From positions 26,364-90,363 of the forward strand of contig JAGGYH010000025.1 in the NCBI GenBank assembly GCA_021162615.1: 64,000 nt of DNA. Direction: 5' to 3'. Positions within the stretch are counted from its first letter, which is position 1. The number at the start of each line of letters is the position of its first letter. Source of the DNA: Candidatus Aminicenantes bacterium. Lineage in GTDB: Bacteria; Acidobacteriota; Aminicenantia; Aminicenantales; Aminicenantaceae. The notes beneath the pieces were generated by a model, which was not told where the DNA came from, did not search any database, and worked only from the letters and a program-made list of their open reading frames with translations. Position numbers and translations under genes: made by a program. This document shows positions 3,371-62,537 of the stretch, in pieces.

Positions 3371-3386
3371 TGATCTCCTCCAGCTG

Positions 3387-8655: not shown

Positions 8656-8707
8656 GTCTTTGGCCTTCATTTTTCTCATTGTATCATTCCAAAGATTTCT
8701 CACTTAT

Positions 8708-8820
8708 TTAACCTGGATGATGAACGAGCCGAGGTTAAGAATAGCTTACTGAAATTCAGGTGAGGACGTGGCGACATTGAAGATTTAGTCTTCATAGTGC
8801 TGTGTTTGAGGGAACTCGGC
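8708..8820 (+). repeat. MITE-like repeat, truncated copy (End-A + left hairpin arm)
   Basis: TTAACCTGGATGATGAACGAGCCGAGGTT followed by CTGAAATTCAGGTGAGGACGTGGCGACATTGAAGATTTAG, which aligns with the copies at 29401 and 34061. The right arm is absent. Confidence 0.8.
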
Positions 8821-8854
8821 AAAGCCGCCTGGGATTCATTTTCCAGGCGGCTTT
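8821..8854. terminator. 12-bp perfect hairpin downstream of the BNR-repeat gene
   Basis: AAAGCCGCCTGG / CCAGGCGGCTTT arms around a 10-nt loop. The only U tract is the three Us within the arm. Confidence 0.4.
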
Positions 8855-13993: not shown

Positions 13994-14032
13994 CCCCTCC
14001 TCCATTCATTGGCCGGATGATATTTTGGACCG

Positions 14033-14587
14033 TTAAATATCTTCGCTTATAAAGACAGCTGCGGCAATCACAGTTGTCCAGTTTCCATCTTTATCTCCCT
14101 TAACGGATTTGGTTATGTTCCGGGTTTTAACAATTTTCCCACTCATTTTAAAAACCTGTTTCTTTTCATTCCAGGCCTCATCCACATTGAATTTGATCCC
14201 GAACGTACTTGCCAACATCGAAGCTGCAAGGTCTTCAGCATAATCGCCTGCTTTTTTGGCGCTTTCCCCAAAGGAATGATGCTCTGAAATATAACCATAC
14301 GTCTTTTCATCTGTGGGAAGCGCCAATCCAATTGATGCAGAAATGACCCTATCCGGTTCTCGGGCTGAGTTTCTTGCCATAATACAGTGTACGATCTGTC
14401 CCGGCTTCAATATTTTTAATCCTTCTTTCCTTGGTATCAGCCTGCATTTAGGAGGAAAGATACTGGAAACGAGGACAATATTGAATTTTTCTATGCCTGC
14501 TTCCCTTAAGGCATATTCAAATGATTGAAGCTGCTCTTTATGTACTCCGGCTCCTTTTGTAAAAAACATCTTTGTGGGAATAATCAT
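14033..14587 (-). CDS. pdaD: Pyruvoyl-dependent arginine decarboxylase
   Basis: N-terminus TKGAGVH...FNIVLVSSIFPP with the self-cleavage SS site. AAGGAGAG RBS. Confidence 0.85.
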   Translation of the reverse strand: MIIPTKMFFTKGAGVHKEQLQSFEYALREAGIEKFNIVLVSSIFPPKCRLIPRKEGLKILKPGQIVHCIMARNSAREPDRVISASIGLALPTDEKTYGYISEHHSFGESAKKAGDYAEDLAASMLASTFGIKFNVDEAWNEKKQVFKMSGKIVKTRNITKSVKGDKDGNWTTVIAAAVFISEDI

Positions 14588-14733: not shown

Positions 14734-16275
14734 TTAGAATCGCCAGAAAAGTGTTTTGAGCCTTTTAACGAGCTTCTTGGCTTTTGAAAGAGCACGGTTG
14801 GCTCTTGAAAGGGAATAATCTGTAAGAAAGTCTACAGCCAGCTTTTTGTCTTTTTTATACAGGCTTAAGGCTGTCTCTTCCAGGGCCGATTGAACAGCAA
14901 ACTGCTGATCCTCAAACATATTCCACTCGGACCGCACTATTTTTATGGCCTTTTTATAGTCAGTGTCCACCAGATTCTCCAGTTCATTGAACACATCAAA
15001 AGCAAAATCCGAATCAAATTCAAATCTTTCCGGAGGATAATCAAAATGTCTTTTCAAATCCAGTTCATCAGCAATATCACCTGGTTTAAAATAACAATCA
15101 GGCATTTCATCCATTCCAAGATACCACGGAGTCAAAACACTGGTACAAGGAGCTGCCAGAGAACGCCATACCACACATCCTATTTCCAAAGGCATCCCGC
15201 TTCTCAATTGATATACAGCGCCTTCCTGAGTGGTCGGGCCGCAGATGTGGGCCGCTTCTGACCTTATCTTATGAGGAGAGCCTTTTTCATAACCATCAGT
15301 GGTATCGAACTCAGTCCCTTCCAAATGGCTTCTTAATATCTCAGCCACATCTTTAACCGTCATTTTTTTCCCGGGTTTCACTGAAAATGGAAGCTCTTTC
15401 ACTGAGCCTAAAGGGATTTGTTCGCCTTTAACCATACACTGGGCATACCACTGCCTGGGGTCAACCCCATATTTGTCCATAAAGCTTCCTTTCCGGGGGG
15501 ACGGGCAGAAATGTTTTTTAAAATTGAAAGGCTCTGCTTCTGAAGGATCGTACCATCCTCTCTCAAGCGCATACTCAATCAGGCCCGGTGAGGCCATTAC
15601 ATTTTCAGTATCACGGATATCAGCTTCCGCTCCGATAATATGGATATTTGGAAGGAGCACCACTTCATCATCCGGACATCTCTGTGCTATCCAGTGCTTT
15701 CCCCTTGCTACAGCCAGAACCCATGCCTCATTGGGATCGGCAATAATCAGCGAGCGCCCCGAAGACGTATAACCGAACTTATTTAGCAGTTCTCCTGCGA
15801 TTTTCACTCCCTCTCTTGCAGACTTGGCCCGCTGAGCCACCAACCGCCTGAGCATATACCCGATGCCTCCATCTGTTATATCTCCCCTCTCAACGAGGAC
15901 CTGATAGGGATCTTCCCTTGTGGGGCAGGCATCTGAAGACACTACCACTCCCCATTCATTAAAATAAGAATCTCCGAACTGCACACCAGGATTCTGAAGC
16001 CACAGCATGGCATATGTTTCTTCAACCTGAGGCAGGGTGCCGCCGTTTTTAAGGACAACTTTGTCTCCGGGCTTGTACTTCATTCTGGGTATATAACGGT
16101 AATTGATGATCCTCCTTCCTCCGTTCTGTTCGTTATGCCCGAACAGCACAGCTCCGTCAGCAGAGGCCTTCTTCCCTACAAGAACAGTGAAGCAATTCCC
16201 TGACAGAAGGGAAGGGATGAAAAAGAGCGTGCCTAAAAATACTAAAAAGAAAACGACCGATTTTTTCAGATACAT
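14734..16275 (-). CDS. Exported C69-family dipeptidase
   Basis: Signal peptide ending LLSGNC, followed by CFTVLVGKKASADGAVLFGHNE (N-terminal Cys nucleophile block). Start chosen at MYLKK (GGAG RBS). Confidence 0.8.
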   Translation of the reverse strand: MYLKKSVVFFLVFLGTLFFIPSLLSGNCFTVLVGKKASADGAVLFGHNEQNGGRRIINYRYIPRMKYKPGDKVVLKNGGTLPQVEETYAMLWLQNPGVQFGDSYFNEWGVVVSSDACPTREDPYQVLVERGDITDGGIGYMLRRLVAQRAKSAREGVKIAGELLNKFGYTSSGRSLIIADPNEAWVLAVARGKHWIAQRCPDDEVVLLPNIHIIGAEADIRDTENVMASPGLIEYALERGWYDPSEAEPFNFKKHFCPSPRKGSFMDKYGVDPRQWYAQCMVKGEQIPLGSVKELPFSVKPGKKMTVKDVAEILRSHLEGTEFDTTDGYEKGSPHKIRSEAAHICGPTTQEGAVYQLRSGMPLEIGCVVWRSLAAPCTSVLTPWYLGMDEMPDCYFKPGDIADELDLKRHFDYPPERFEFDSDFAFDVFNELENLVDTDYKKAIKIVRSEWNMFEDQQFAVQSALEETALSLYKKDKKLAVDFLTDYSLSRANRALSKAKKLVKRLKTLFWRF

Positions 16276-16626
16276 GATTTTATCTCCATTCCTTGGATTC
16301 ATTCGAAAACTTCATCCTTTTGAATATTTTATAATATCCTTTTTTTATTTTCACTTCCTTCATATAATCCATTTATCCAGGTTCTTGAATCTTGTCTAAC
16401 AGATTTTCCTTAAATATAAAGTCATTCCCCGCCGTCTTTAAAAACACATCCATAGGAGCCACCTCAAATTCCTGTCCTAACCGGTCACGGATTGATTTAA
16501 CCCGGGTGATATCGCTCCATTCTCTCACATGAATGAGTAAAAAATAAGGACATATTCAGTATATTTTTATCAAGAAACCATACGATTTGCAATAAATCCC
16601 TGAAAAAGACTTAGGGGTATCCAGAG

Positions 16627-17066: not shown

Positions 17067-18824
17067 TTGGGAAAAAAGATTATCTATTTTAAAAAACTTA
17101 GCTTGATATCTTTGCTTCTTCTCCTGTGTTTTGTTTCTTTCACTCATTCAGAAAACAATGAAAATCCAAAAACAGGAATCATACCTACTGACGGATGTAC
17201 TGTCATCATCGTTGGAAAGGATGCCTCAACAGACGGCTCTGTCATGAGCACACACACCTGTGACTGCGGCCTTTGTGATTGGACATGGCGGTACACCCCG
17301 GCTGCAGATTATGATGAGGGTTCAAAACGAAAAATATACCACATCAATCAGTTCAGAACCTGGGACCCGGACATAGGCCTCAAATGGGAAAAATATAAAG
17401 ATGACTTTACAGGGCTTGAAATCCCACAGGTCAGCCATACCTATTCTTATGTCAACGGTGCCTTCGGATATATGAACGACCAGCAGGTTGCCCTGGGAGA
17501 ATCAACCATCGGATGCCAGGAAAAAATGGAAAATCCCACTCCTACAGCAAAGTTTGATATCACCATGCTGACGTTACTCGCAATGGAAAGAGCCAAAACA
17601 GCGCGGGAAGCTGTAAAAATAATGGGAGAGCTGGCGGAAAAACACGGGTACGGATACACCGATACCGGCGAGATGCTGGCTCTATCTGATCCAAACGAGG
17701 TTTGGATCTTCGAGATCATGCCTGTCGGCCCCCTCTGGACTCCGGAAAGCGGAAAACCAGGAGCCGTGTGGTGCGCTCAGAGAGTCCCTGATGATCATGT
17801 AAGTGTATGTCCCAATGAATCCCGGATCGGAGAAATCGATCTTGACAATCCTGACTATTTCATGGCCTCTCCGAATGTCATCTCCTTTGCAGTGGAACAG
17901 GGCTTTTATGACCCTGAAAGCGGAGAGCCATTCAACTGGAAAAAAGCGTATTCCCCCTCTGAATACAGCGCTGAGAGCAGCAACGGCTCAAGAGCTCGTA
18001 TGTGGCGGTTTTTTGACCTGGCAGCCCCCTCAAGAAACTTCAGCCCTGATACTCCAAATATGGAATTTCCTTTCTCTGTTAAGCCTGATAAAAAACTTTC
18101 TGTGTATGATGTGATGAAGATGACCAGAGATAAATTTGAAGGCACTCCCTATTATCCTGCCAGAGGGCTTCAGGGAGGTGCTTTCAGCAATCCCAATCAC
18201 CTTCCCTATGGATTCGAACTGGAAGGCAAGAGATACAGCCTTTCACGCGTGATCAGTGTCAACCGCGCTGAATATGTGACGGTTACCCAGTGCAGAGACT
18301 GGCTTCCCAATCCAATAGGAGGACTTGTCTGGCTTGCTTTTGGTGCTCAGGACACTTCCTGCTATATGCCGTTTTACATCGGAATCAACAGGATTCCCAG
18401 GTCCTTTGAGATCGGAGATCACTGGAAATTTGATAGGGATTCCGCAAGATGGGCGTTTGACTATGTTGATTTTCACACACAGGTTGCCTATTCTCATGCC
18501 ATCAAGGATGTCAGAGAATATCAACAGAAATGGGAGAAAACCGCTGTTGACAGGACTCCCCTGATTGATGAATACGCTGAAAAGCTTTACAACAAGGATC
18601 CTTCACTGGCATCTGACTTTTTAACTGACTACTGCAACAATAATGCAAAGTTAGTTATTGATGCCTGGTGGGAGCTGGGTGATTACCTGCTGGTGCGGTT
18701 CAATCACTTGTGGAACTATGATGTCAAAGAAAGAAAAAGAAAGGCACTGGAATATCCGGATTGGTGGCTCAAACTTCTGGTTGAATACAATAAATTAAAA
18801 CCGATTGAACAGAAAAAAGATTAA
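17067..18824 (+). CDS. Exported C69-family dipeptidase (paralogue)
   Basis: TTG start with an AAAAGGAGG RBS. Signal peptide. DGCTVIIVGKDASTDGSVMSTHTCDC nucleophile block. Confidence 0.8.
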   Translation: MGKKIIYFKKLSLISLLLLLCFVSFTHSENNENPKTGIIPTDGCTVIIVGKDASTDGSVMSTHTCDCGLCDWTWRYTPAADYDEGSKRKIYHINQFRTWDPDIGLKWEKYKDDFTGLEIPQVSHTYSYVNGAFGYMNDQQVALGESTIGCQEKMENPTPTAKFDITMLTLLAMERAKTAREAVKIMGELAEKHGYGYTDTGEMLALSDPNEVWIFEIMPVGPLWTPESGKPGAVWCAQRVPDDHVSVCPNESRIGEIDLDNPDYFMASPNVISFAVEQGFYDPESGEPFNWKKAYSPSEYSAESSNGSRARMWRFFDLAAPSRNFSPDTPNMEFPFSVKPDKKLSVYDVMKMTRDKFEGTPYYPARGLQGGAFSNPNHLPYGFELEGKRYSLSRVISVNRAEYVTVTQCRDWLPNPIGGLVWLAFGAQDTSCYMPFYIGINRIPRSFEIGDHWKFDRDSARWAFDYVDFHTQVAYSHAIKDVREYQQKWEKTAVDRTPLIDEYAEKLYNKDPSLASDFLTDYCNNNAKLVIDAWWELGDYLLVRFNHLWNYDVKERKRKALEYPDWWLKLLVEYNKLKPIEQKKD

Positions 18825-18857
18825 CCTGACCTATTCATAAAAAAACAGCGATGTTCG
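18821..18857 (+). repeat. Solo MITE End-B
   Basis: TTAACCTGACCTATTCATAAAAAAACAGCGATGTTCG. The dipeptidase TAA stop (18822-18824) lies inside the TTAA terminus. Confidence 0.75.
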
Positions 18858-18864
18858 TTTTTTT

Positions 18865-28214: not shown

Positions 28215-28616
28215 CTAAAATTTGGTTCTAGCATCGGTGCTTTCTGAGACCTGCTCTAGTATATATACAGTTACAGGCTGGCTTGTTTGCTTTCCTATTT
28301 CCCTTGAATAATCAACAGCTTCGGTAATGGGGATTCTGTTTTCATGACCAATTCTGAAATAATTCTCCATGGCTTGAACTCTTTCTGTATCCTTTTCCGC
28401 AAATTCCTGTATACTCTTGCCTCCGCTAAAGAAAAAGATGCTGTAAACCAAAAGCAATACCCCTAAGGTACCTACGGCTCCTGCCAATGAAAGACTGAGA
28501 ATGCGGCCCTTTTGCTTTTTCTTTTTTCTCTGAATCAAAAGATTCATGACTCCTTTTTCGAAATATTCCGGAGCCTCCACTCTTTCATATTTTTTCAAAA
28601 TATCAAGCTCTCTCAT
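28215..28616 (-). CDS. Putative single-pass anti-sigma factor
   Basis: Overlaps the stop of the ECF sigma gene. One central TM helix. No recognisable domain. Confidence 0.5.
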   Translation of the reverse strand: MRELDILKKYERVEAPEYFEKGVMNLLIQRKKKKQKGRILSLSLAGAVGTLGVLLLVYSIFFFSGGKSIQEFAEKDTERVQAMENYFRIGHENRIPITEAVDYSREIGKQTSQPVTVYILEQVSESTDARTKF

Positions 28617-29205
28617 TTTCGAACTCCTGAGCTTCTGGTTTAAAATTTATATTAAAATCATCCTTTCTGATTTCCTGTTTAAGGTATTGTCTTCCCCTGC
28701 TTATCTGCGCTTTTATGGTTCCAACCGGTTTTTTGAGCATATCGGCAATTTCCTCTTGTGAGAAACCTTCTATATCTTTGAGCACAAGCGGAATTCTGTA
28801 GCGCCGATGCAGATTGTTGAGCGCCTTTCTGATCTTTTTTACTGTTTCTTTCATTTCAAAGTCATCCGTTTCTGACAGTCCCTGCTGGTTGTTGTTGTAT
28901 ACATTCTCTAAAGGAATACTCCTTTGTTTATTCATCTTCTTTAACTCTGTTTTTGCCAAATTCGATGCAATTGTAAAAAGCCACGAAGAAAAAGGAGCCT
29001 TTGGTCTGTATTTTTTTGCCTTATAATAAACCCTTATGAATGTTTCTTGAGATAATTCCACGGCTTTTTCATAATCCCCGGTCATATTATAGAGAAAATT
29101 AACAATTTTATTTTTGTATTTGTGCATGATTTCTTCAAAAGCATCCTCATCGCCTTTTTGTACTAAAAGTATTAAATTTTTATCGTTCATTCTCTCATCA
29201 TCCAT
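28603..29205 (-). CDS. ECF (group 4) sigma-70 factor
   Basis: Region 2 (FEEIMHKYKNKIVNFLYNMTGDYEKAVELSQETFIRVY) and region 4 (SQEEIADMLKKPVGTIKAQISRGR). Confidence 0.85.
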   Translation of the reverse strand: MDDERMNDKNLILLVQKGDEDAFEEIMHKYKNKIVNFLYNMTGDYEKAVELSQETFIRVYYKAKKYRPKAPFSSWLFTIASNLAKTELKKMNKQRSIPLENVYNNNQQGLSETDDFEMKETVKKIRKALNNLHRRYRIPLVLKDIEGFSQEEIADMLKKPVGTIKAQISRGRQYLKQEIRKDDFNINFKPEAQEFENERA

Positions 29206-29400: not shown

Positions 29401-29579
29401 GAATAGCTTAGTCCTTATGAAAATCAGGTGTGGCCGTGGCGACATTGAAGATTTAGCCTTCGGATGCAGGAAGTCGATCCTGGTCACCCACGGACGGGGG
29501 GAGTTGCGCAGAAGCCGAGAATACAGCACGTAGAATGGCGTTAAAAATCTTTAGTGAGCGCAGGCCATATCTGATTTTC
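29401..29579 (+). repeat. MITE-like repeat, hairpin-core copy without recognisable termini
   Basis: Aligns with 34092-34289. Arms at 29419-29435 and 29563-29579 are complementary. The 3' end abuts the stop codon at 29583-29585. Confidence 0.8.
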
Positions 29580-29582
29580 TTA

Positions 29583-30110
29583 TCAGCATTTCTTCTCCTC
29601 GAGCTCCATAATGGGATTGTCAGAATCAACAAGGTCGCCTTCAGATGCAAATATTTTCTTTACAACTCCCTGCAAAGAGGACTTGATCTCATTCTCCATT
29701 TTCATTGCTTCCACAATAGCCAGTGTCTGGCCAACTCTCACTTCCTGCTTTTCTGAAACTTCAATTTTTATAACCTTACCGGGCATAGTGGATTTGATTT
29801 TCAACATATCTTCTCTTGATCTCTCTTCGCCGCCCTGTACTTCGCTCTCATCCTGGTCCGAGTCTTTGATGAAATATTGATCTCCCCTGCACTGTACGAA
29901 AAATCCGTCGTCACTCCGTGCAATAAACACTCTATAGACCTTGTCCTCTATCTTTAGGGAAACAATATGGGGAGATAAGTTTTTGATGTCCGCTGTGTAT
30001 TGGTCATCATCAACACCGACAACATACTGTTCACCTTTTTTCTCAAGAAATATTTTCAACAGCTTATTATCGACAACGAATTCATGTTCCACTTTCTTCA
30101 CTCCTCCCAA
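29583..30110 (-). CDS. BT-domain + biotin carboxyl carrier (BCCP) subunit of an acyl-CoA carboxylase
   Basis: Biotinylation motif EAMKMEN near the C-terminus. The start is uncertain: TTG 30110, GTG 30101 or GTG 30092, with GGGAGGAG at 30101-30108. Confidence 0.75.
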   Translation of the reverse strand: MGGVKKVEHEFVVDNKLLKIFLEKKGEQYVVGVDDDQYTADIKNLSPHIVSLKIEDKVYRVFIARSDDGFFVQCRGDQYFIKDSDQDESEVQGGEERSREDMLKIKSTMPGKVIKIEVSEKQEVRVGQTLAIVEAMKMENEIKSSLQGVVKKIFASEGDLVDSDNPIMELEEKKC

Positions 30111-31599
30111 GTCTCCATTTCCCTAATGTCTGCCATGGCGATCTTTCTCCGTGTTCCTTTTTTCCTATTCCTGAATCATATGTCCTGTTTTGCCCCAAAA
30201 AAGCCGCCGCCAGGAGGCAGATCTCTCTTTTTTTATCATCTTTCCTTAGTGCAAACCCATCTTTGAACTGTTTTTCAATAAAATCAGTAGTGGTATCTCC
30301 TCTCCTGAACATGGGGCTTGAGATAACTTCTTTTAAAAAAGATATACTTGTCTTGACGCCTAAAATCACATAATGTTCCAGTGCCTGGACCATTCTTTGA
30401 CATGCCATCTCTCTATTTTCTGCCCAAACAACAAGCTTAGACAGTATGGGATCATAATATATGGGGACCTCACAGCCGCTGTAGATTCCGCTGTCAAGCC
30501 GGATACCCGGCCCTGCGGGTTCGTTGATAAACAATATTTTCCCTGACGAAGGAAGAAAATTATTTTCCGGGTCTTCAGCATATATTCTGCATTCGATAGA
30601 ATGCCCCTTTTGATGCAGTGAGCTCTGTTTTATCTTGAGTTTTTTTCCAGCTGCAATCAAAATTTGATGCTGCACAATATCCAAACCGGTGACCAGCTCT
30701 GTGACAGGGTGTTCTACCTGAAGTCTTGCATTGACTTCCAGGAAATAAAAATTTCTATCCTTATCAAGAAGGAACTCAACTGTTCCGGCATTATTGTATC
30801 CGGTTACTTGGATGACTCTTTTGGCAACTTCTCCCATCTGGTCCCTTAAGCCTTCATCAAGTGCTTGAGATGGAGATTCTTCAATGATTTTCTGATGCCT
30901 TCTCTGGATTGAGCATTCCCGCTCAAAAAGATGCACAATGTTCCCATAGTTATCCGCCAGGATCTGAAACTCTACATGCCGCGGCTCCTGAATGCATTTT
31001 TCCAGATAGACTGATTCATCGCCAAAAGCAGATTTCGCCTCTCTCATCCCGGCTTCAAGTCCGGCTTTTAGCCTTTCATGAGAGTGGACAATGCGCATAC
31101 CTTTGCCTCCTCCTCCGGCAGATGCTTTAATCATCAGCGGGTAGCCGATTTTGTCGGCCTCTTTCTCATATTCAGAAATATTTTTTAAAACACATTTCAT
31201 ACCGGGGATAATGGGGACGCCGGCTTTTTCCACGGTCTGTCTTGAACGCACTTTGTCTCCCACTAGATCCATGGCTCTTGAATTCGGTCCGATAAAAACA
31301 ATACCCTCTTTTTCACACCTTAATGAAAAAGAGGGATTCTCAGCAAGAAATCCGTAACCGGGATGGATAGCCTGGGCCTTTTTCTCCTTGGCCGCATGTA
31401 TAATATTATCTATATCAAGGTAGCTGTCAACAGCCTGAGCCGGTCCTATGCATACAGCTTCGTCCGCAAACTGTACATGCAGACTTTTTCTGTCTGCTTC
31501 TGAATAAACAGCTACGGTTGAAATACCCATCTCCTGACAGGCCCTGATGATTCGAACCGCTATTTCTCCACGGTTTGCAATCAGTATTTTCTCAAACAT
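30082..31599 (-). CDS. Biotin carboxylase subunit (methylcrotonyl-/acyl-CoA carboxylase alpha, lacking BCCP)
   Basis: MFEKILIANRGEIAVRI start and ATP-grasp blocks. The C-terminal SPWQTLGKWRLG motif normally precedes the BT domain. Confidence 0.85.
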   Translation of the reverse strand: MFEKILIANRGEIAVRIIRACQEMGISTVAVYSEADRKSLHVQFADEAVCIGPAQAVDSYLDIDNIIHAAKEKKAQAIHPGYGFLAENPSFSLRCEKEGIVFIGPNSRAMDLVGDKVRSRQTVEKAGVPIIPGMKCVLKNISEYEKEADKIGYPLMIKASAGGGGKGMRIVHSHERLKAGLEAGMREAKSAFGDESVYLEKCIQEPRHVEFQILADNYGNIVHLFERECSIQRRHQKIIEESPSQALDEGLRDQMGEVAKRVIQVTGYNNAGTVEFLLDKDRNFYFLEVNARLQVEHPVTELVTGLDIVQHQILIAAGKKLKIKQSSLHQKGHSIECRIYAEDPENNFLPSSGKILFINEPAGPGIRLDSGIYSGCEVPIYYDPILSKLVVWAENREMACQRMVQALEHYVILGVKTSISFLKEVISSPMFRRGDTTTDFIEKQFKDGFALRKDDKKREICLLAAAFLGQNRTYDSGIGKKEHGERSPWQTLGKWRLGRSEESGT

Positions 31600-32407
31600 T
31601 CTTTTTTCCCTTATCTTCAACCATCCAAGCAGGCTTCCGCTTTTCCAAAAAAGCAGCCATTCCTTCCTGACCCTCGTCACTGATCCTGAGGTTAGCGATC
31701 ATTCTTGCTGTATATTCTCTGGCCTCTTCCAATGAGATCTGAGGCACCTTGAAGAGAAGTTCTTTGCAGCTGGCCATGGCATCCGGTCCGGAAGATAAAA
31801 GACGATCGACCGTATTCTCAACTTCACGATCAAGGCCTTCATAGGGACAGACATGGTTCACAAGACCGATCTTTTCACCTCTTTCGGCTGATATCCTCTC
31901 TCCCGTTAAAAAATACTCTCTGGCTTTGCTCTCCCCTATCCTTTTGACAACATACGGAGAGATGGCAGCAGGGATAAGTCCGATTTTCACCTCGCTTAAA
32001 CCAAACTTGGCTGTAGAGGCAGCGATGACAATATCACAGGCAGAAAGAAAACCGACCCCACCTCCTATGGCGGTTCCATTCACCCGAGCTATAGTGGGTT
32101 TTGGAACGGAGTATATGGTGTGAAGAAGCTCTGCTATTTCTAATGACTCCTTGAGATTCCGGTCATAAGAATAATGGATGATCTCCCTCATCCAGTTTAA
32201 GTCCGCACCCGCACAAAACGACTTGCCTTTTCCTGTCAGCACGATCACTCTGACTGAGGCATCATCTCTTATCTCCCTAAAAACATCCAGCATCTCAGAG
32301 ATCATGGTTGAATTAAAGGCGTTGTGTACTTCAGTCCGGTTTAAGGCAAGAAAGGCTCTCTGGCTTCCTTTCTTATAGATGATTGTGCTGTATTTTTTTT
32401 CTGTCAT
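31592..32407 (-). CDS. Enoyl-CoA hydratase (crotonase) family, methylglutaconyl-CoA hydratase by context
   Basis: Crotonase oxyanion blocks FCAGADL and GGG. Sits between the carboxylase subunits. Confidence 0.75.
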   Translation of the reverse strand: MTEKKYSTIIYKKGSQRAFLALNRTEVHNAFNSTMISEMLDVFREIRDDASVRVIVLTGKGKSFCAGADLNWMREIIHYSYDRNLKESLEIAELLHTIYSVPKPTIARVNGTAIGGGVGFLSACDIVIAASTAKFGLSEVKIGLIPAAISPYVVKRIGESKAREYFLTGERISAERGEKIGLVNHVCPYEGLDREVENTVDRLLSSGPDAMASCKELLFKVPQISLEEAREYTARMIANLRISDEGQEGMAAFLEKRKPAWMVEDKGKKNV

Positions 32408-32408
32408 G

Positions 32409-34016
32409 TTACATCCTGAAAATTCCCACTTTATAGTCAGGAATCATCTGATTCAGGCTCATGGAAATACCAAGAGCCAGGGCTTCTCTGGTATCCAGAG
32501 GCTCTATGATCCCATCATCCCATAACCGCGCCGTGCTGAAATAAGGGCTTCCTTCGTACTCATATTTCTTAAGAATGGGCTGCATGATCTTATTCCTTTC
32601 CTCTTCGGTCATCTTATTGCCGGTTTTTTCAAAGTGCTTCTCCTTCACTGTGAGAAGAACATTGGCCGCCTGTTCCCCCCCCATGACACTGATTCTGGCA
32701 TTCGGCCACATCCATAAAATACGGGGCCCGTAAGCCCTTCCGCACATGGCATAATTTCCCGCACCATAGGAGCCGCCTATTATTACTGTAAATTTAGGCA
32801 CATCAGCATTGGCAACCGCATGAACCATCTTGGCTCCGTCTTTGGCAATCCCGCCGTGTTCGTACTGTTTTCCGACAATAAATCCTGTGATGTTCTGAAG
32901 GAAAATCAGAGGAATCTTTCTCATTGCGCACAAGGTTATGAAATGAGCCCCCTTCAGAGAGCTTTCAGAAAAAAGGACTCCGTTATTAGCAACGATCCCT
33001 ACCGGATAACCCATGATCCTCGCAAAACCGCAGACAAGGGTTATCCCGTATTTTTCTTTAAACTCTTGAAACCGGCTCCCATCGACTATCCTGGCAATGA
33101 CCTCTCTTGTATCAAAAGGTTTTCTTAAGTCCCTTGGAACGATCCCCAATAGTTCATTAGGGTCATAATAGGGTTCTTCAGGTTCTTTGCGGTCAAGACT
33201 GAATTTTCTTGAAGGTTCAAGCGTCTCAACAATATTTCTGGCAATCTTTAATGCGTGCTCGTCATCCTGGGCAAAATAATCAGATACTCCTGAAATCCGG
33301 CAGTGCACATCAGCCCCTCCAAGCTCTTCATCAGTCACCTCTTCTCCGGTGGCTGCCTTGACCAGAGGCGGCCCGCCTATAAAAATGGTCCCCTGTTCCT
33401 TAACGATCACCGTCTCATCGCTCATGGCCGGCACGTAAGCTCCCCCCGCGGTACAGGAGCCCATTACTATTGAGATCTGGGGGATTCCCATTGCAGAAAG
33501 ACGAGCCTGATTATAAAAAATACGGCCAAAGTGCTCCTTATCCGGAAAAGTCCCTGCCTGATGAGGAAGGAATATCCCGCCGGAATCGACCAAATAAATA
33601 CAGGGAAGACGGTTTTCCATGGCTACTTCCTGGGCTCTTATATGCTTTTTTATAGTCATAGGGAAATAGGTACCGCCTTTTACGGTCGCATCATTAGCGA
33701 TTACAAGCACTTCCCGGCCATGGATCACTCCTACTCCGGTCACCATGCTGGCCCCAGGGGCCTGGTCATCATACATTCCATAAGCAGCCATGGGACTTAA
33801 TTCCAAAAAAGGACTATTGCGGTCAAAAAGTCTTTCAAGGCGCTCCCTTGCTAATAATTTACCTCGAGATTTATGAATCTTTCTGTATTTCTCGGGGCCT
33901 CCTTTTTTAATGCGGGCGAGATTATTTCTGTACTCATCAACCTGTTTTTTCATATATTCTAAGTTTTTTATGTACTCAGGACTTTTTGTGTCTATTTTGC
34001 TTTTGATTCTAAACAT
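32409..34016 (-). CDS. Acyl-CoA carboxylase carboxyltransferase (methylcrotonyl-CoA carboxylase beta-like)
   Basis: [39 protein letters not shown] and [11 protein letters not shown] blocks as in the MCC/GCC beta subunit. Confidence 0.85.
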
Positions 34017-34060
34017 ACCCTCTTCCCCTTGTGTATCGAATTATAAAAGACACGGCTTTT

Positions 34061-34446
34061 TTAACCTGGATTATTCACAAGCCGAGGTTGCTTAAACTTA
34101 CTGAAATTCAGGTGTGGCCGTAGCGACATTGAAGATTTAGCCTTCGGATGAGGCTTTTCGAGGGCATCCGGCGAAGCCGGACGCTGAGTATGTCTGACCC
34201 ACGGACTGGGGGAGTTACGCAAGCGCCGAGAAAAATGAAGGAGAATGGCGTTAAAAATCTGAAGGGAGCACAGACCATATCTGAATTTCATATCGGCTTG
34301 CATTAATTGTAAAAAAATAGCGATTAAAATGAAAGTAAAAACAAACAAAAACATTTCAATTGTCATTTTTATGAAAAGCATGTATATCCTTGATATCAAA
34401 ACAAAAAAATGATCATCGCCATTTTTTTATGAATAGGTCAGGATAA
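34061..34446 (+). mobile_element. Full-length copy of the MITE-like repeat (End-A, hairpin core, AT-rich spacer, End-B)
   Basis: TTAACCTGGATTATTCA at the left end versus TGAATAGGTCAGGATAA at the right (imperfect TIR). Core arms at 34103-34119 and 34273-34289. No credible ORF. Confidence 0.8.
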
Positions 34447-34465
34447 ACGCTTTGTTAAATCCTTC

Positions 34466-34861
34466 CTATGAATCAGGAACAAACTTATATCCATAACACA
34501 GTATACCTGAATGTCCTTTTTTAAAAAGCTTTCTGAACTCAATCTTGACTCTTTTTCCCAGCTTCAGGTCCTCAAAATCACAATCAACAATCTGACCCAT
34601 AAGTTTGACTCCGTCATCCAGCTCTATAACTCCGACTGCATAGGGAGCCTGATCCTTGAACTGGCTGGGGGGGACTCTGATAATGGTATAGCTTATGACC
34701 TTTCCTTTCTCCGCAATCTTTGTTTTCACTAAATCGCGAGAGCCGCATTCCGGGCAGATAAGCCTCGGTGGAAAAAATTTCTGTTTGCACTTCGTACAAC
34801 TGTTGGCTTCCAGTCTATACCTTTGAGGTATCTCTCTCCAATATCTTGATGGTGTTGACAT
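34466..34861 (-). CDS. DUF35 OB-fold/zinc-ribbon protein (thiolase-HMGCS scaffold type)
   Basis: Zn ribbon CTKCKQKFFPPRLICPECGS followed by an OB-fold-sized C-terminus. Confidence 0.8.
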   Translation of the reverse strand: MSTPSRYWREIPQRYRLEANSCTKCKQKFFPPRLICPECGSRDLVKTKIAEKGKVISYTIIRVPPSQFKDQAPYAVGVIELDDGVKLMGQIVDCDFEDLKLGKRVKIEFRKLFKKGHSGILCYGYKFVPDS

Positions 34862-34876
34862 TCGCTTCCTCCTTTC

Positions 34877-36031
34877 TTATCCTCTCTCAAAAATATGAAC
34901 GACCGTACTGGCACCACTGCCACCCATATTTTGAGTGAGCCCGATGCGCGCTCCCTTGATCTGCCTTTTTCCTGATTCTTCCCGCAATTGCTTGACGATC
35001 TCCACGGCCTGGGCTATCCCGGTCGCTCCGACCGGATGCCCTTTTGACTTCAAACCGCCGCTTGGATTAACAGGTATATCGCCTTCCAGTGCGGTCCGAC
35101 CCCTTTCCACAGCCTCTCCCGATTTCCCTTTATCAACGATTCCCAGAGCTTCCATGACGCAGAGTTCAGCAATAGTGAAACAATCATGAACTTCAAACAC
35201 ATCTATATCGCCGGGGCTTTTTCCAGCCATTGCATAAGCACTTTTCCCTGCTTGATAAGTTGACTCTAACCAGGTCATGTCTTTTCTCTGGCTGATAGCT
35301 ATGGCATCTGTGGCATGACCGCTTCCTGTTATTTTAACAATAGGTTTGTTCAGTTTTTTAGCGATTTCAACAGGACATATTATGGCTGCGGCAGCTCCAT
35401 CAGTGATAGGAGAGCAATCCAGTATCCTCAACGGGTCAGCGACTTTGACAGAATGCAACACATCATCAAGGGTTACTTCAAAAGGAAACTGCGCAAGAGG
35501 ATTCATCGAGCCGTTCCTGTGGTTCTTCACAGCCACCTCTGCCAGCTGTTTCCTTGTGGTTCCGTATTTATCCATGTGCGCCACAGCAATCAAGGCATAA
35601 AGACCCGGAAAGGTAATCCCGTTGTAGCATTCATACTCCTGGTCGGCTGCTGTGCCCAGGGCATAAGTGGCTTCATCCCCTCCGACATCCGTCATTTTTT
35701 CGATCCCGCTCACCAGAACGATATCACTCATCCCGCTGGCGACCTCCATAAATCCGAGCCTCAAGGCAAGCCCTCCGGATGCACAGGCTGTCTCCACTCT
35801 TGTTGAGGGCACAGGAGCACAACCTAAATAATCCGCAAGAAGGGAGGCGATATGTTCCTGCCCTACAAAAATCCCTGACGACATGCAACCTACGTACATG
35901 GAATCAATATGATCGACTCCTGAGTCATCTATGGCCATCAAGGCTGTTTCTACGTATATATCCCTCAGGGATTTATTCCAAAGCTCTCCCCATTTAGTCA
36001 TTCCGATCCCTATGACTGCTACTTCTCTCAT
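34877..36031 (-). CDS. Thiolase (archaeal/SCP-x-type acetyl-CoA acetyltransferase)
   Basis: Active-site Cys block [10 protein letters not shown]-terminal [17 protein letters not shown] and GGSGAS. Confidence 0.85.
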
Positions 36032-36040
36032 TTTTTCCTC

Positions 36041-37087
36041 CTAATCAGCTTTCCTTATTTTTTCTCTGAATTTTGCGTATTCCCCGTATTCAAGATATTT
36101 TTTATTGTTATTGAGGAGCTCTCTTGTCAGAGGGGCTAAATTTCTCACTGCATCGATCCTTGAAGTGACTTTTAGAATGAATGCATCGCTCCCCGCACCA
36201 GAACCGTATGAGACTAAGAGAATATTATCGCCGGGTTTTGCAATATCAAGCGTAGCTGTTAAACCTAAAGGAGAAGAACCAGAATACGTGTTCCCGAGTT
36301 TGTTCACCAGCCATCCGGGTTCAATCTGCTGCCTGGAAAAACCTAGAATCTTACCTGCCCTAAAGGGAAATTTTCCGTTGGGCTGGTGAAATACTACATA
36401 ATTGAAATCACCGGCCTGCATGCCCGCCTTATTCATAATGCCTTTTGCAGCTCCAATAACATGTTTGAAATAGGCTGGTTCCCCTGTAAACCGCCCTCCG
36501 TGCTGGGGGTAGTACTCGTATTCCCTCCTCCAAAAATCAGGCGTATCCGTCATATAAGCATAGGTATCAAGGACTTCTGCGACCACCTTGTCCCTGCCAA
36601 AAATAAAAGCGGCAGCGCCTGCAGCTGCTGAGTATTCCAAAGCATCACCGGGAGCCCCTTGAGAGGTATCTGCCCCGACTCCAAGTCCATATGTAACTAT
36701 GCCTGCCTTAACGAGATTCAATGCCACAAACATACCTTCGGTCCCGGCCTTACATGCGAACTCAAAATCAGCTGTGTGCACTTCCGGAGTGGCACCCAAC
36801 GCTTCAGCAAGAACAGTGCCGCTGGGTTTGACCGCATAAGGATGCGACTCGGATCCTACATACACCGCACCGATATCTATCGGATCAATTCCAGCTCTTT
36901 TCAGGGCATTTTTAGATGCTTCAACAGACATGGTTATGGTGTCCTGGTCAGGCGAAGGGACTGACTTTTCTTCAAGTATCAAACCCTTCTTGTAACTTGG
37001 TGCGTCAGCTCCCCATACTTTGGCTATTTCTTCTACTTTAATTCGATTTCTCGGGATATAGGCTCCGTAGCCTACGATTCCTTCCAT
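36041..37087 (-). CDS. Hydroxymethylglutaryl-CoA synthase (archaeal-type, ~350 aa)
   Basis: GSESHPYAVKP, EFACKAGT (catalytic Cys) and FHQPNGKFP blocks. Confidence 0.8.
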   Translation of the reverse strand: MEGIVGYGAYIPRNRIKVEEIAKVWGADAPSYKKGLILEEKSVPSPDQDTITMSVEASKNALKRAGIDPIDIGAVYVGSESHPYAVKPSGTVLAEALGATPEVHTADFEFACKAGTEGMFVALNLVKAGIVTYGLGVGADTSQGAPGDALEYSAAAGAAAFIFGRDKVVAEVLDTYAYMTDTPDFWRREYEYYPQHGGRFTGEPAYFKHVIGAAKGIMNKAGMQAGDFNYVVFHQPNGKFPFRAGKILGFSRQQIEPGWLVNKLGNTYSGSSPLGLTATLDIAKPGDNILLVSYGSGAGSDAFILKVTSRIDAVRNLAPLTRELLNNNKKYLEYGEYAKFREKIRKAD

Positions 37088-37257
37088 TTAAACCTCCCTT
37101 TTAGAAAAAATTATTGAATAGAAAGAAAAATTCATCTCTGCCGTTCCTGCATTCCTCCAGTATCGACTAAAAAATCATCCTGTCATATTTCGCCATAGCA
37201 AGTCAAGAAATTTTCGCTTTTTGAGCCAGAGTCCCTTGATTCTGATCCTTGTACACA

Positions 37258-37285
37258 TTGACATAATCATAAACGCGAATAGAAT
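37258..37285 (+). promoter_or_regulatory. Sigma70-like promoter upstream of ECF sigma gene 2
   Basis: TTGACA, a 16-nt spacer, then TAGAAT. Confidence 0.45.
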
Positions 37286-37308
37286 AAAAAAACATCATCA
37301 GTTGCTGC

Positions 37309-37334
37309 GGAACTTTTTGAACCAAATCTTCGTC
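37309..37334 (+). promoter_or_regulatory. ECF-type promoter (GGAAC-N17-CGTC), probably autoregulatory
   Basis: GGAAC at 37309-37313 and CGTC at 37331-37334, immediately upstream of the GTG start at 37351. Confidence 0.55.
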
Positions 37335-37350
37335 TATTAAGGTGTGTTAA

Positions 37351-37920
37351 GTGACAATAAAAAAAATAATAAGAGAATGCAGGAAAGGAAACCAGAGGTC
37401 ATGGAAAATGCTCATTGACACCTACTCAAAAAAAATATTCAATCTCGCTTATCAATTTACAGGCTCATACGAAACTTCCGAGGACCTTACGCAGGAAATA
37501 TTTATTAAAGTCTACAATTCTCTTCATAAATATGACTGTTCCAGGAATTTTAATTCCTGGATTGCTACTTTATCACGCAACTACCTGATAGACCACTACA
37601 GAAAAACAAAACTGGAAAAGAAAAAGCGAACTGATTTCAACGAACACATACTCGATTCAGAAAGCAAGACAGATCCTGAAGAAAACATTATTAAAAAACA
37701 GAATCAAAAAATAATCTGGGAAGGAATCAGGTCATTAAACCCTGATGTGAGAATGGCTGTTATTCTCAGAGATATTCAAGGGAAAAAATATGAGGATATC
37801 GCAGAAATAATGTCCTCTCCCCTGGGAACCGTGAAATCAAGAGTCAACCGCGGCCGCATCAAACTGGCCAAAATATTAAAGAAGGAAAAGGAGAATAAAA
37901 ATGAAATGCCGGCAAATTGA
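37351..37920 (+). CDS. ECF (group 4) sigma-70 factor
   Basis: GTG start. Region 2 (WKMLIDTYSKKIFNLAYQFTGSYETSEDLTQEIFIKVY) and region 4 (YEDIAEIMSSPLGTVKSRVNRGR). Confidence 0.85.
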   Translation: MTIKKIIRECRKGNQRSWKMLIDTYSKKIFNLAYQFTGSYETSEDLTQEIFIKVYNSLHKYDCSRNFNSWIATLSRNYLIDHYRKTKLEKKKRTDFNEHILDSESKTDPEENIIKKQNQKIIWEGIRSLNPDVRMAVILRDIQGKKYEDIAEIMSSPLGTVKSRVNRGRIKLAKILKKEKENKNEMPAN

Positions 37921-38392
37921 AAAATTTCTTTCTCCTTATTTAGAAAACGAATTGAATCAGGAAGAAAAAGCTCTTGTTGAGAACCATATAGAAAAATGCC
38001 CCAAATGCTCTGGCCTTCTTTCATACATGAGAGAAGCAAAGGATTCCATGGCTAAAATTCCGGAAATAGATGTAAGCCCATCCCTTATGAAAAGACTGTA
38101 TAAAATTCCGAATAAAAAACCCAAGAGAAGCTTTCGTTTTCTTCTCAAGCCCTCTCTTCAACCCATACTTGCTGCTGCAACGGTCCTTATCACAGTCATA
38201 TCGCTCTATTCACTGAATCCTGATAGAGAGCAAATAAACAAATTCATCAATCAGAAAATTCATATTGGTTACAGTAAAGCAGAAAGATTATACGCCAGAG
38301 CAGAATCTTTGACCAACACTCTGGCCGGATATAAAGAAAACATTCTTTTTTCCATAAAAAACATTGACTTTTTTTGGGAGAAAAATGACTGA
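37901..38392 (+). CDS. Anti-sigma factor with zf-HC2 motif
   Basis: HIEKCPKCS (H-x3-C-x2-C) near the N-terminus and one TM helix. Overlaps the sigma gene stop. Confidence 0.75.
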   Translation: MKCRQIEKFLSPYLENELNQEEKALVENHIEKCPKCSGLLSYMREAKDSMAKIPEIDVSPSLMKRLYKIPNKKPKRSFRFLLKPSLQPILAAATVLITVISLYSLNPDREQINKFINQKIHIGYSKAERLYARAESLTNTLAGYKENILFSIKNIDFFWEKND

Positions 38393-38425
38393 CTTAATGA
38401 TTAAACTGGAAATGGAGGAATTAAA

Positions 38426-38935
38426 ATGAATAACAAAAAAGAACAAGAAGAAAAATATGTGGCGGAAAGAGCTCCTAAGTCCCCTGCCTTGGCAGGTATC
38501 CTGACCTTCTTTTTTCCCATCGGAACCGGAGCCCTTTATAATGGGCAGATAAAGAAGGCTATATTCTTTTTTCTTGCCTTTTCCGGACTTGTCACTCTTC
38601 AAACCTCAGGAAGAGGACAGCCCTTTTTAGCACTCTGCCTGGCAGGATTTTGTATTTATCAAATTTATGATGCTGTGCATACAGCCAAACTCATCAATCT
38701 CGGTTACCTGGGAGAAGACATTGAAAAACAAGCCCGTTCTGTTGACGAAATTCCGGAGCCGGTGAGATCTGGTTCCATTTTCTGGGGTCTCGTTCTCATA
38801 GTACTGGGTGGTGTCCTTTTATTGGCAAACTATCAAATCATTGATTATGATACCCTCTTTGACTTCTGGCCGCTCATCATTATTGTCATCGGGTTTAAGT
38901 TTATAATGGATTACGTATCCCGAGAGAAAAAATAA
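38426..38935 (+). CDS. Membrane protein with C-terminal LiaF-N/DUF5668-like TM hairpin
   Basis: Four hydrophobic segments. The C-terminal WGLVLIVLGGVLLLANY...WPLIIIVIGFKFI resembles the following small ORF. Confidence 0.55.
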   Translation: MNNKKEQEEKYVAERAPKSPALAGILTFFFPIGTGALYNGQIKKAIFFFLAFSGLVTLQTSGRGQPFLALCLAGFCIYQIYDAVHTAKLINLGYLGEDIEKQARSVDEIPEPVRSGSIFWGLVLIVLGGVLLLANYQIIDYDTLFDFWPLIIIVIGFKFIMDYVSREKK

Positions 38936-41431: not shown

Positions 41432-42235
41432 TCAATGCATCTTTTTGTCATAGATCCAGTCTGTATTTTCATGCCGGTTTTTTTGTATGCTTCGAATAAT
41501 TTCCTTTTGCTTTTTTGAAAATTCCATAGGATGCAGCTCAACATCAAAAAACTCCCGGATCCCCAAAATGAGGTTCTCTGCAAGCAAGCAAAAATCAATT
41601 TCTCTTTGTGCCGCCTGAGAAGCCGTGATTAACCGGATTTCCTCATTTTTTTTATCCAGCAAGGAGACAGATTGAAGAAGCCTGTCATCATTCTCCAGAG
41701 GGATAGAACCATGCTGTATGAATCTATGCGCGGCTCTTTTTTGGGCGCTTCCGACTATTTTCTTATCCTTTACTTTGATCTCATTTCTCGCCGGATATGA
41801 GAAACAGGGAAGGCTGCTTCTGGAATAAAAAAGGTTGTCATCGCTGGACAGATAGGCAGGAATATTTAATTTTTTCAATCCTTTAATAAGGGCTTCTGAT
41901 ATCTTTTTATATGAACTGCTCAAAGAAGAGGTAAAAACGTTCACATCTGATGAGCAAACACTGTAAGTCACTTCTTTATGGTGCAGGACCAGTTTTCCAC
42001 CGGTTATTCTCCGCACAATATCGATCCTGTTTTTTTTGCAAAATCCCAGATCCAATACTTTTCTTATATCCTGAGAGCAGCCGATAGAGACCGTAGGCCT
42101 TTTCCATGTGTAAAACCTTATATAAGTGACCGGGTCCTTCCCCAGGCTCTCGAACAAAAAATCATCGACGGCCATGTTGTACGAACCCTTCCCTGGTTTG
42201 TTCTCTTTTAGAAGGAACCACTTTTTCACAGTCAA
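41432..42235 (-). CDS. Lipoate-protein ligase / octanoyltransferase family (BPL_LplA_LipB domain)
   Basis: YNMAVDDFLFES, RRITGGKLVLHH and KIVGSAQKR...HGSI blocks. Confidence 0.75.
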   Translation of the reverse strand: MTVKKWFLLKENKPGKGSYNMAVDDFLFESLGKDPVTYIRFYTWKRPTVSIGCSQDIRKVLDLGFCKKNRIDIVRRITGGKLVLHHKEVTYSVCSSDVNVFTSSLSSSYKKISEALIKGLKKLNIPAYLSSDDNLFYSRSSLPCFSYPARNEIKVKDKKIVGSAQKRAAHRFIQHGSIPLENDDRLLQSVSLLDKKNEEIRLITASQAAQREIDFCLLAENLILGIREFFDVELHPMEFSKKQKEIIRSIQKNRHENTDWIYDKKMH

Positions 42236-49402: not shown

Positions 49403-49477
49403 TTAACCTGGATGATGAATAAAAAAATAAACATCGCCGTTTTTTTATGAATAGTTCAGGTTAATAGTTCAGGTTAA
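49403..49477 (+). repeat. Minimal MITE copy (End-A fused to End-B) with 13-bp tandem terminal duplication
   Basis: TTAACCTGGATGATGAA...CATCGCCGTTTTTTTATGAATAGTTCAGGTTAA (49403-49464). TAGTTCAGGTTAA is repeated at 49465-49477. Confidence 0.8.
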
Positions 49478-57170: not shown

Positions 57171-57252
57171 TCCTGGTTATTCATAAAATGTGAAAATCAG
57201 ATATGGAAGGCTAAATCTTCAAAATCGCCACGTCCACACCTGAATTTCAGAA
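57171..57252 (-). repeat. MITE copy with short hairpin (End-B-like + fused arms) between convergent guaB and panD
   Basis: The reverse strand reads CTGAAATTCAGGTGTGGACGTGGCGATTTTGAAGATTTAGCCTTCCATATCTGATTTTC followed by TTTATGAATAACCAGGA. The panD stop (57247-57249) lies inside the arm. Confidence 0.75.
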
Positions 57253-62503: not shown

Positions 62504-62537
62504 ACATCGCCATTTTTTTATGAATAGGTCAGGTTAA
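62504..62537 (-). repeat. Solo MITE End-B
   Basis: ACATCGCCATTTTTTTATGAATAGGTCAGGTTAA, ending 4 nt from the rarA stop codon. Confidence 0.75.

Follow-up and report, generated by a model that had tools for sequence, protein, structure and literature searches.

A seven-gene operon of Candidatus Aminicenantes joins an archaeal-type HMG-CoA synthase/thiolase/DUF35 trio to 3-methylcrotonyl-CoA carboxylase and hydratase genes: a candidate leucine/isovalerate module

Structure of the operon

We analysed a stretch of 64,000 nucleotides from a Candidatus Aminicenantes bacterium, an uncultured inhabitant of sediments (assembly GCA_021162615.1, contig JAGGYH010000025.1, positions 26,364 to 90,363), called here the window; all positions given below without a locus number are counted from its first nucleotide. 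The subject of the analysis is an operon of seven open reading frames (ORFs) at 29583-37087, all on the minus strand. [quoted passage not shown] The other four encode the carboxyltransferase (CT) of 3-methylcrotonyl-CoA carboxylase (MCC), a hydratase of the crotonase family (ECH), a biotin carboxylase (BC), and a small protein with the BT region and the biotin carboxyl carrier (BCCP) domain. The coordinates agree with those in the initial annotation of this DNA, made without database searches, and all seven gene identities proposed there hold in comparisons with Pfam and NCBIfam profiles, with solved structures and with orthologs (Table 1). The module belongs to two known families at the same time: its first part is an archaeal-type thiolase/HMGCS/DUF35 trio, its second a liuBCD block of MCC and hydratase genes.

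The junctions, read in the direction of transcription, are 9, 15, 449, 1, -8 and about -11 to -29 bp; as had been noted, they are short or overlapping apart from one gap filled with repeats. The BC gene starts with ATG, and the gene caller gives the same start. For the BT-BCCP gene the caller favours a start at 30092, which corresponds to the shorter, 169-residue product. Given these gene identities, the enzymes of the module interconvert acetyl-CoA, acetoacetyl-CoA, HMG-CoA, 3-methylglutaconyl-CoA and 3-methylcrotonyl-CoA, the same chain of intermediates that the initial annotation had drawn.

Table 1. Genes and other features of the operon and its borders (positions in the window)
Feature	Position	Strand	Basis
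Archaeal-type HMG-CoA synthase (HMGCS), 348 aa	36041..37087	-	TIGR00748; PDB 6esq_I
SCP-x/archaeal-type acetoacetyl-CoA thiolase, 384 aa	34877..36031	-	NF004720; 6esq_A
DUF35 scaffold protein, Zn-ribbon and OB fold, 131 aa	34466..34861	-	PF12172 and PF01796; 6esq_E
Repeat-filled intergenic gap, 449 bp	34017..34465	.	Repeat copies elsewhere in the window
MCC beta, carboxyltransferase (CT), LiuB-type, 535 aa	32409..34016	-	MCC-beta scores
3-Methylglutaconyl-CoA hydratase, LiuC-type crotonase (ECH), 271 aa	31592..32407	-	ECH_1; Azospirillum hydratases
Biotin carboxylase (BC) half of split MCC alpha, 505 aa	30082..31599	-	Domains; MCC-alpha alignment
BT-BCCP half of split MCC alpha, 169-175 aa	29583..30110	-	Biotin_lipoyl; biotinylation motif
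Second full MITE-like repeat copy, operon 3' end	29414..29587	.	73% identity to the gap element
Divergent intergenic region upstream of HMGCS, presumed operon promoter	37088..37350	.	Presumed; weak sigma-70-like match

The synthase, thiolase and DUF35 genes

The trio had been described as archaeal in type, and this is borne out for all three proteins. HMGCS scores 548 bits with the archaeal equivalog model TIGR00748 (cut-off 353) and only 122 bits with the bacterial-type model TIGR01835 (cut-off 360), that is, far below what is required of an MvaS-type synthase. It is 63% identical to the synthase in the solved complex of Methanothermococcus thermolithotrophicus (PDB 6esq_I, 470 bits), and its catalytic triad Glu80 (GSESH), Cys112 (FEFACKAG) and His234 (FHQPNG) is intact. 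The thiolase scores 543 bits with NF004720 (cut-off 420), 549 bits with the archaeal acetyl-CoA acetyltransferase model NF053570, slightly below the cut-off of 600, and 364 bits with the structures 6esq_A and 7yvy_A. It retains the nucleophilic cysteine (ACASGG) and the HDxF motif (EVHDCF) that separates true archaeal-type acetoacetyl-CoA thiolases from repurposed bacterial homologs (PMC12960953). The DUF35 protein consists of the zf-ChsH2 (PF12172) and OB_ChsH2_C (PF01796) domains and aligns with the DUF35 chain of the archaeal complex, 6esq_E, at 108 bits, with the CxxC...CxxC zinc ribbon included in the alignment.

The gene order HMGCS-thiolase-DUF35 is found in the window and in nearly all loci of relatives that are long enough to show it. 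Thus the same three proteins occur in the same order as in the archaeal system, with conserved catalytic residues and zinc ribbon. On the other hand, the host is a bacterium, no mevalonate-pathway genes are nearby, and the trio is tied to MCC and hydratase genes. The complex is predicted here from the genes alone, and the direction that we propose for it below is the reverse of the archaeal one.

The carboxylase and hydratase genes

The initial annotation had assigned the last four genes to the leucine-catabolic steps leading from 3-methylcrotonyl-CoA to HMG-CoA. The comparisons agree, and the genes can be described as an MCC-beta ortholog, a LiuC-type hydratase and a split MCC alpha subunit. 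CT matches the Pfam family PF01039 at 526 bits. Its scores are 746 bits with MCC-beta of Pseudomonas aeruginosa, 737 bits with human MCCB and 746 bits with AccD1 of Mycobacterium tuberculosis; with the MCC-beta proteins of classical liu clusters its identity is 64%. The scores with other carboxylases are lower: 474 bits for geranyl-CoA carboxylase, approximately 250 bits for the beta subunit of propionyl-CoA carboxylase (PCC) and approximately 150 bits for GcdA. On these scores CT is a true MCC-beta ortholog, and its assignment as a geranyl-CoA (acyclic-terpene) carboxylase, a propionyl-CoA carboxylase or a glutaconyl-CoA decarboxylase was rejected.

The crotonase scores 220 bits with ECH_1, and its best NCBIfam model is PRK05674 of the LiuC/AtuE type (282 bits, under the cut-off of 426). 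With the Azospirillum hydratases whose genes stand immediately between those of MCC-beta and MCC-alpha it shares 48-50% identity, and by this measure it is an ortholog of the hydratase that occupies this place in classical liu clusters.

The BC protein contains the Pfam domains Biotin_carb_N, CPSase_L_D2 and Biotin_carb_C; the part of P. aeruginosa MCC-alpha that it matches is residues 9-504, and in human MCCA it is residues 50-545. The small protein matches Biotin_lipoyl (63 bits), has the biotinylation motif EAMKMENEI, and aligns by its residues 22-171 to residues 574-728 of human PCCA, which comprise the BT region and BCCP. One ORF thus corresponds to MCC-alpha residues 9-504 and the other to the BT/BCCP end of PCC-alpha, which makes this a split alpha subunit encoded by two genes. 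It is nevertheless complete (BC, BT, BCCP and the AMKM lysine), and the same split is seen in relatives.

Two classical clusters were used for comparison. The cluster on Azospirillum p2 has the order isovaleryl-CoA dehydrogenase (IVD), thiolase, acyl-CoA dehydrogenase, MCC-beta, hydratase, MCC-alpha, HMG-CoA lyase, and the one on a Cupriavidus plasmid has the order lyase, IVD, MCC-beta, MCC-alpha. The order CT-ECH-BC/BCCP corresponds to MCC-beta, hydratase, MCC-alpha in Azospirillum, and thus the core order liuB-liuC-liuD of a canonical cluster such as Pseudomonas liuABCDE is present. There are three differences: HMG-CoA lyase (liuE) and IVD (liuA) are absent from the window; the alpha subunit, a single chain of about 670 aa in the classical case, consists here of a BC protein of 505 aa and a BT-BCCP protein of about 170 aa; and the HMGCS trio is attached.

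A gene of the BPL_LplA_LipB family is located approximately 4 kb upstream of the module (41432-42235, minus strand), and its position is kept in Aminicenantes relatives. In one related locus, L047, a gene of the same family (2594-3376) lies between HMGCS and thiolase. The product may be a biotin-protein ligase that serves the split carboxylase specifically.

Conservation in other genomes

The HMGCS sequence is identical on 22 metagenome contigs, and the arrangement of the window is matched in the ten shown, as far as the contigs reach. The named relatives of HMGCS at 84-91% identity all are Candidatus Aminicenantes. In a survey with one genome per species, more than 587 genomes encode a relative of HMGCS; the best 80 of them (66-85% identity) were examined by tblastn with the seven window proteins as queries, and loci extending at least 4.5 kb downstream of HMGCS were considered informative (n=55).

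The trio adjoins biotin carboxylase and hydratase genes in 42 of the 55 informative loci. An MCC-beta ortholog (at least 60% identity) is linked in 37 loci, nearly all with the order HMGCS-thiolase-DUF35-CT-ECH-BC-BCCP, and a different carboxylase together with a hydratase in five. In one more locus the hydratase alone is present, and carboxylase and hydratase are both missing from the remaining 12. The initial annotation had called for a check of synteny in relatives, and the linkage is indeed conserved. The full module occurs in genomes assigned to Aminicenantes, Acidobacteriota, Zixibacteria, Ignavibacteria, Coatesbacteria, Glassbacteria, Elusimicrobiota and Eisenbacteria, that is, under at least eight phylum-level names. 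In Elusimicrobiota and Eisenbacteria the carboxylase block is upstream of the trio and not downstream. The variant module (loci L062, L065, L067, L074, L085), found in Planctomycetota, Myxococcia and Acidobacteriota, has an AccC-like BC, an AccB-like BCCP, and a CT that is 34% identical to the window CT and equidistant from MCC-beta and GcdA. It represents an uncharacterised carboxylase lineage in the same context.

The linkage thus persists where genes have been rearranged or inserted and where the carboxylase has been exchanged for one of another lineage, and this is strong evidence for a shared function of the trio and the carboxylase block. As the fusion is conserved across many phyla, functional coupling is supported much better than it could be from one genome. 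Full-text literature searches found no published description of this combination of the trio with liuBCD.

In several phyla, defence-like or selfish genes were observed between the genes of the module, with the order intact: in L045 (16682-17680), L050 (14004-15074), L082 (6937-8253) and L054 (13652-14878). The genes inserted within the module in relatives (an Mrr restriction endonuclease, DUF2726, Schlafen/AlbA_2 and TPR proteins) were considered as clues to the pathway and dismissed as unrelated or defence-like.

The trio-only loci are surrounded mostly by unrelated genes. In a Solibacteraceae genome (L030, 7734-10608), genes of a family III CoA-transferase and of a CitMHS carboxylate transporter come after the trio. 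Genes of this kind would suit a dicarboxylate that is taken up and activated, for example 3-hydroxy-3-methylglutarate.

The gap between the DUF35 and CT genes

The gap had been described as filled by a miniature inverted-repeat transposable element (MITE), which is fair, as two repeats were found in it. The MITE-like element is approximately 200 bp long, has terminal inverted repeats of 16 nt and lies at about 34097-34297. Its second full copy (Table 1) directly follows the BCCP stop codon, aligns over 202 nt and has the same terminal inverted repeats; partial copies are at 8703-8827 and 57206-57250. The other repeat, of 45 bp, lies at 34400-34446, with four more copies in the window (49418-49464, 62481-62537, 18821-18864 and 7166-7198). 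Both small-repeat families appear to be species-specific among the loci compared.

An ORF in the gap (34061-34399, 106-112 aa) was considered a possible further gene of the operon. Neither Pfam nor NCBIfam has a match for it, there is no homolog outside the species, and it consists largely of repeat; it is probably spurious. A riboswitch or other known RNA in the gap was rejected as well, as there is no Rfam match in it at E <= 1; at the gathering thresholds Rfam finds two tRNAs only in the whole window.

A consensus scan for transcription signals found a weak sigma-70-like match upstream of HMGCS (minus strand 37186-37159, 9 of 12 positions) and a weak promoter-like site before CT (34035-34006). 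The same scan found no convincing minus-strand terminator in the gap, which does not settle read-through. In most relatives the DUF35-CT junction is 12-160 bp long, and in several phyla it hosts unrelated inserted genes. In the Aminicenantes relatives its length varies from 35 to 474 bp, and for this reason an internal promoter at the junction is possible.

One possibility is that the operon consists of two separate units: an ordinary liuBCD block, with the lyase encoded elsewhere, and a trio serving some other acetyl-CoA condensation, with a separate promoter in the gap. The long and variable junction with its repeats and foreign genes, the promoter-like site before CT and the genomes that carry the trio alone are all in line with that. 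However, the two blocks are adjacent in 42 of the 55 informative loci, from at least eight phyla, also where they have changed places or where a carboxylase of another lineage has come in, and this is hard to account for unless they share a function. Besides, no lyase is found near any of the 42 linked modules, whereas classical clusters keep the lyase adjacent. We consider two separate units unlikely.

Missing enzymes and recurrent neighbours

The initial annotation had noted that the window contains neither HMG-CoA lyase nor IVD. Both are indeed absent, according to tblastn and to Pfam searches with almost all ORFs of at least 150 aa. With the Cupriavidus lyase as a tblastn query (E <= 1e-3), neither the window nor any of 90 related loci gives a match, in about 1.2 Mb of sequence altogether. 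Both classical clusters compared, those of Azospirillum and Cupriavidus, keep the lyase beside the MCC genes. Motifs of HMG-CoA reductase, of the lyase and of GHMP kinases, which include mevalonate kinase, were found neither in the window nor within 10 kb of the module in the 80 relatives.

All flanking ORFs of the related loci were clustered in order to find recurrent neighbours. Short-chain acyl-CoA dehydrogenase genes stand directly beside the module in about 12 loci, and in Zixibacteria and Ignavibacteria the module is followed by genes of 3-hydroxybutyryl-CoA dehydrogenase (Hbd) and thiolase II. These neighbours form a catabolic context of the beta-oxidation type. The large subunit of a methylmalonyl-CoA-mutase-like protein also recurs. 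A DUF1446/AtuA-like protein of approximately 600 aa without an NCBIfam match (L077, 18781-20583; L087, 9966-11801; L063, 9692-11518; L076, 8489-9853) is encoded directly upstream of CT or beside the trio in Ignavibacteria, Zixibacteria and Chlorobiota.

These observations bear on the leucine-to-mevalonate shunt that had been suggested initially, and that is still a live rival and the main one. The operon would then supply HMG-CoA for mevalonate synthesis both from three acetyl-CoA, via the trio, and from leucine, via MCC and hydratase, with the reductase encoded elsewhere. HMG-CoA is common to both halves. The nearest relative of the trio is the archaeal mevalonate-pathway complex, all catalytic residues are kept, and synthesis is the only demonstrated physiological direction; the 12 loci with the trio alone are as expected for an autonomous biosynthetic job. 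A similar route exists in haloarchaea and trypanosomatids, where HMG-CoA delivered by MCC and hydratase is used directly and not cleaved by the lyase. However, that route needs HMG-CoA reductase, and there is none near any module copy searched, whereas bacterial mevalonate genes usually cluster (PMC6107057). The neighbouring acyl-CoA dehydrogenase, Hbd and thiolase II suggest bulk catabolism and not a low-flux biosynthetic branch. Indirect evidence comes from a survey of 2018, in which the phyla that carry the module are not among the main mevalonate users, the methylerythritol phosphate (MEP) pathway is present in 58 of 59 phyla, and Chloroflexi are called the sole phylum with an archaeal-type mevalonate pathway (PMC6107057). 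The related loci gave no tblastn match with IspH, Dxr, Dxs and IspG of E. coli, a sample too small for this to be meaningful. Overall, supply of mevalonate seems unlikely, although it deserves to be kept in view.

Direction of the pathway

The liuBCD half is well supported, as far as specificity can be predicted from sequence, as an ATP- and biotin-dependent route from 3-methylcrotonyl-CoA to HMG-CoA. The BC is of the soluble ATP-grasp kind, there is no membrane decarboxylase subunit, and such an enzyme drives carboxylation; hence HMG-CoA is the likely product of this half.

This also bears on the other suggestion of the initial annotation, a resemblance to the isovaleryl-CoA route of Myxococcus xanthus (MvaS, LiuC, AibA/AibB, AibC). 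In an anabolic pathway of that type three acetyl-CoA would be converted via HMG-CoA, 3-methylglutaconyl-CoA and 3-methylcrotonyl-CoA to isovaleryl-CoA, a primer for iso-branched fatty acids or a precursor of leucine, and the biotin enzyme would run in reverse as a decarboxylase, possibly making ATP, in place of AibA/AibB. The resemblance stands in so far as a LiuC-type hydratase is present and the same intermediates are joined. The neighbouring acyl-CoA dehydrogenases are of the Bcd/AcrC type and such enzymes often are reductases; iso-C15 lipids are abundant in many of the host phyla (Acidobacteriota, the FCB group, Myxococcia). The anabolic direction does not stand equally well. The synthase is archaeal-type, with thiolase and DUF35, and not the bacterial MvaS, and the place of the cofactor-free AibA/AibB decarboxylase is taken by an ATP-dependent biotin carboxylase. 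Soluble ATP-grasp BC is a hallmark of carboxylation, whereas known biotin decarboxylases lack BC and have a membrane pump subunit; reversal at cellular ATP/ADP would need a very large ratio of product to substrate. Pfam and NCBIfam searches found no AibA/AibB-type domains, related to glutaconate CoA-transferase, and no AibC domains among the operon genes or their neighbours. Finally, peptide fermenters have ample isovaleryl-CoA from leucine. We regard the anabolic pathway as very improbable.

The reading that we favour, tentatively and short of calling it probable, is a third option, absent from the two suggestions of the initial annotation: a catabolic module for leucine or isovalerate centred on HMG-CoA, in which the synthase/thiolase complex replaces the lyase and is run in reverse. 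3-Methylcrotonyl-CoA derived from leucine or isovalerate would be converted to HMG-CoA by the carboxylase (CT, BC and BT-BCCP) and the hydratase. The archaeal-type trio would then fill the functional slot that HMG-CoA lyase (liuE) has in classical clusters: acting in reverse, it would convert HMG-CoA and CoA to acetoacetyl-CoA and acetyl-CoA, and subsequent thiolysis would bring the total to three acetyl-CoA.

The condensation catalysed by thiolase is strongly endergonic, at approximately +25 kJ/mol, and roughly the same amount of energy is released in the synthase step. As the two energies are of similar size and opposite sign, the net reaction of the trio would be near equilibrium if these values hold. 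A low ratio of acetyl-CoA to CoA, or the ATP-driven supply of HMG-CoA, could pull it backwards.

The possible gain is in energy. HMG-CoA lyase releases free acetoacetate, which needs to be reactivated by CoA transfer. The lyase route would yield two net acetyl-CoA less one ATP for carboxylation, that is, about one ATP per leucine, the same as excretion of isovalerate. On the reverse route the second thioester would be kept, and three acetyl-CoA less one ATP would give about two ATP per leucine. Starting from free isovalerate, the yields would be about zero ATP with the lyase and about one ATP with the reverse route, before the cost of hydrogen formation. Complete breakdown of leucine or isovalerate would then pay for energy-limited anaerobes such as these peptide-fermenting bacteria of sediments. 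It is conceivable, and we put it more cautiously than the reading of this operon, that across uncultured anaerobic phyla the reversed trio serves as a thioester-conserving replacement of the lyase (HMG-CoA + 2 CoA -> 3 acetyl-CoA) and doubles the ATP yield of leucine or isovalerate fermentation.

A mechanistic analogy, from an unrelated family and pathway, is the reversible citrate synthase of the reversed oxidative tricarboxylic acid cycle in Desulfurella and Thermosulfidibacter. It too is a Claisen-condensing, thioester-hydrolysing enzyme that was long thought irreversible, and it runs backwards in vivo, sparing an ATP-dependent or thioester-wasting lyase. The difference is that reversal is demonstrated there and hypothesised here.

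Several observations weigh against lyase replacement. HMG-CoA synthase of this family is not known to run in reverse, and its final chemical step, hydrolysis of the enzyme thioester, is normally regarded as irreversible. The negative results for the lyase and the reductase cover the window and the related loci, and a copy elsewhere in the genome is possible. About 22% of the informative loci have no carboxylase next to the trio, which may thus have a different or a further role. IVD was not found in the window, and the acyl-CoA dehydrogenases encoded beside the module in relatives score higher with butyryl-CoA dehydrogenases (325-380 bits) than with isovaleryl-CoA dehydrogenases (242-258 bits). 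A thiolase is present also in the lyase-containing Azospirillum cluster, and thus adjacency of a thiolase does not discriminate between the readings.

Other genes in the window

The rest of the window is unrelated to the module and contains modules of extracytoplasmic function (ECF) sigma factors, HtrA, lipopolysaccharide genes, transporters, UvrBC, SecA, pantothenate genes and a polyamine cluster; in this Pfam survey UvrB and UvrC were taken from the gene-caller annotation. The operon has ECF sigma/anti-sigma modules on both sides, the upstream one with LiaF-like membrane proteins (37351-38935, plus strand) and the downstream one with HtrA (28215-29205, minus strand), and both are conserved in Aminicenantes relatives. 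Two genes of peptidase C69 (dipeptidase), 14734-16302 on the minus strand and 17067-18824 on the plus strand, flank tRNA-Leu, which fits a peptide-fermenting lifestyle. The polyamine cluster (12084-14587, minus strand) encodes a pyruvoyl-dependent arginine decarboxylase (PF01862), a deoxyhypusine-synthase-like protein (PF01916) and an agmatinase/arginase (PF00491). For a bacterium the set has an archaeal flavour, and its product may be homospermidine or a related polyamine.

Implications

The operon is one instance of a putative leucine/isovalerate module, widespread in candidate phyla, in which an archaeal-type synthase complex would carry out the last step or at least is linked to it. Whichever reading is correct, automated annotation will currently mislabel the module in hundreds of metagenome-assembled genomes. 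If the module supplies mevalonate synthesis, several candidate phyla would be added to the bacteria with archaeal-type early mevalonate enzymes, fed in this case by leucine.

If the lyase is indeed replaced, textbook degradation of leucine and isovalerate would acquire a new ending, and it would become clear how energy-starved subsurface fermenters and syntrophs profit from branched-chain substrates. Nature would then offer a second case, next to the reversible citrate synthase, in which a synthase held to be irreversible runs backwards. Archaeal-type HMGCS would gain a catabolic, non-isoprenoid role in bacteria, which bears on its use as a marker of mevalonate ancestry, and a naturally reversible, substrate-channelling module for conversion of C6 to three C2 units would be of interest to metabolic engineering. 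The question whether HMG-CoA synthase runs backwards in nature becomes directly testable.

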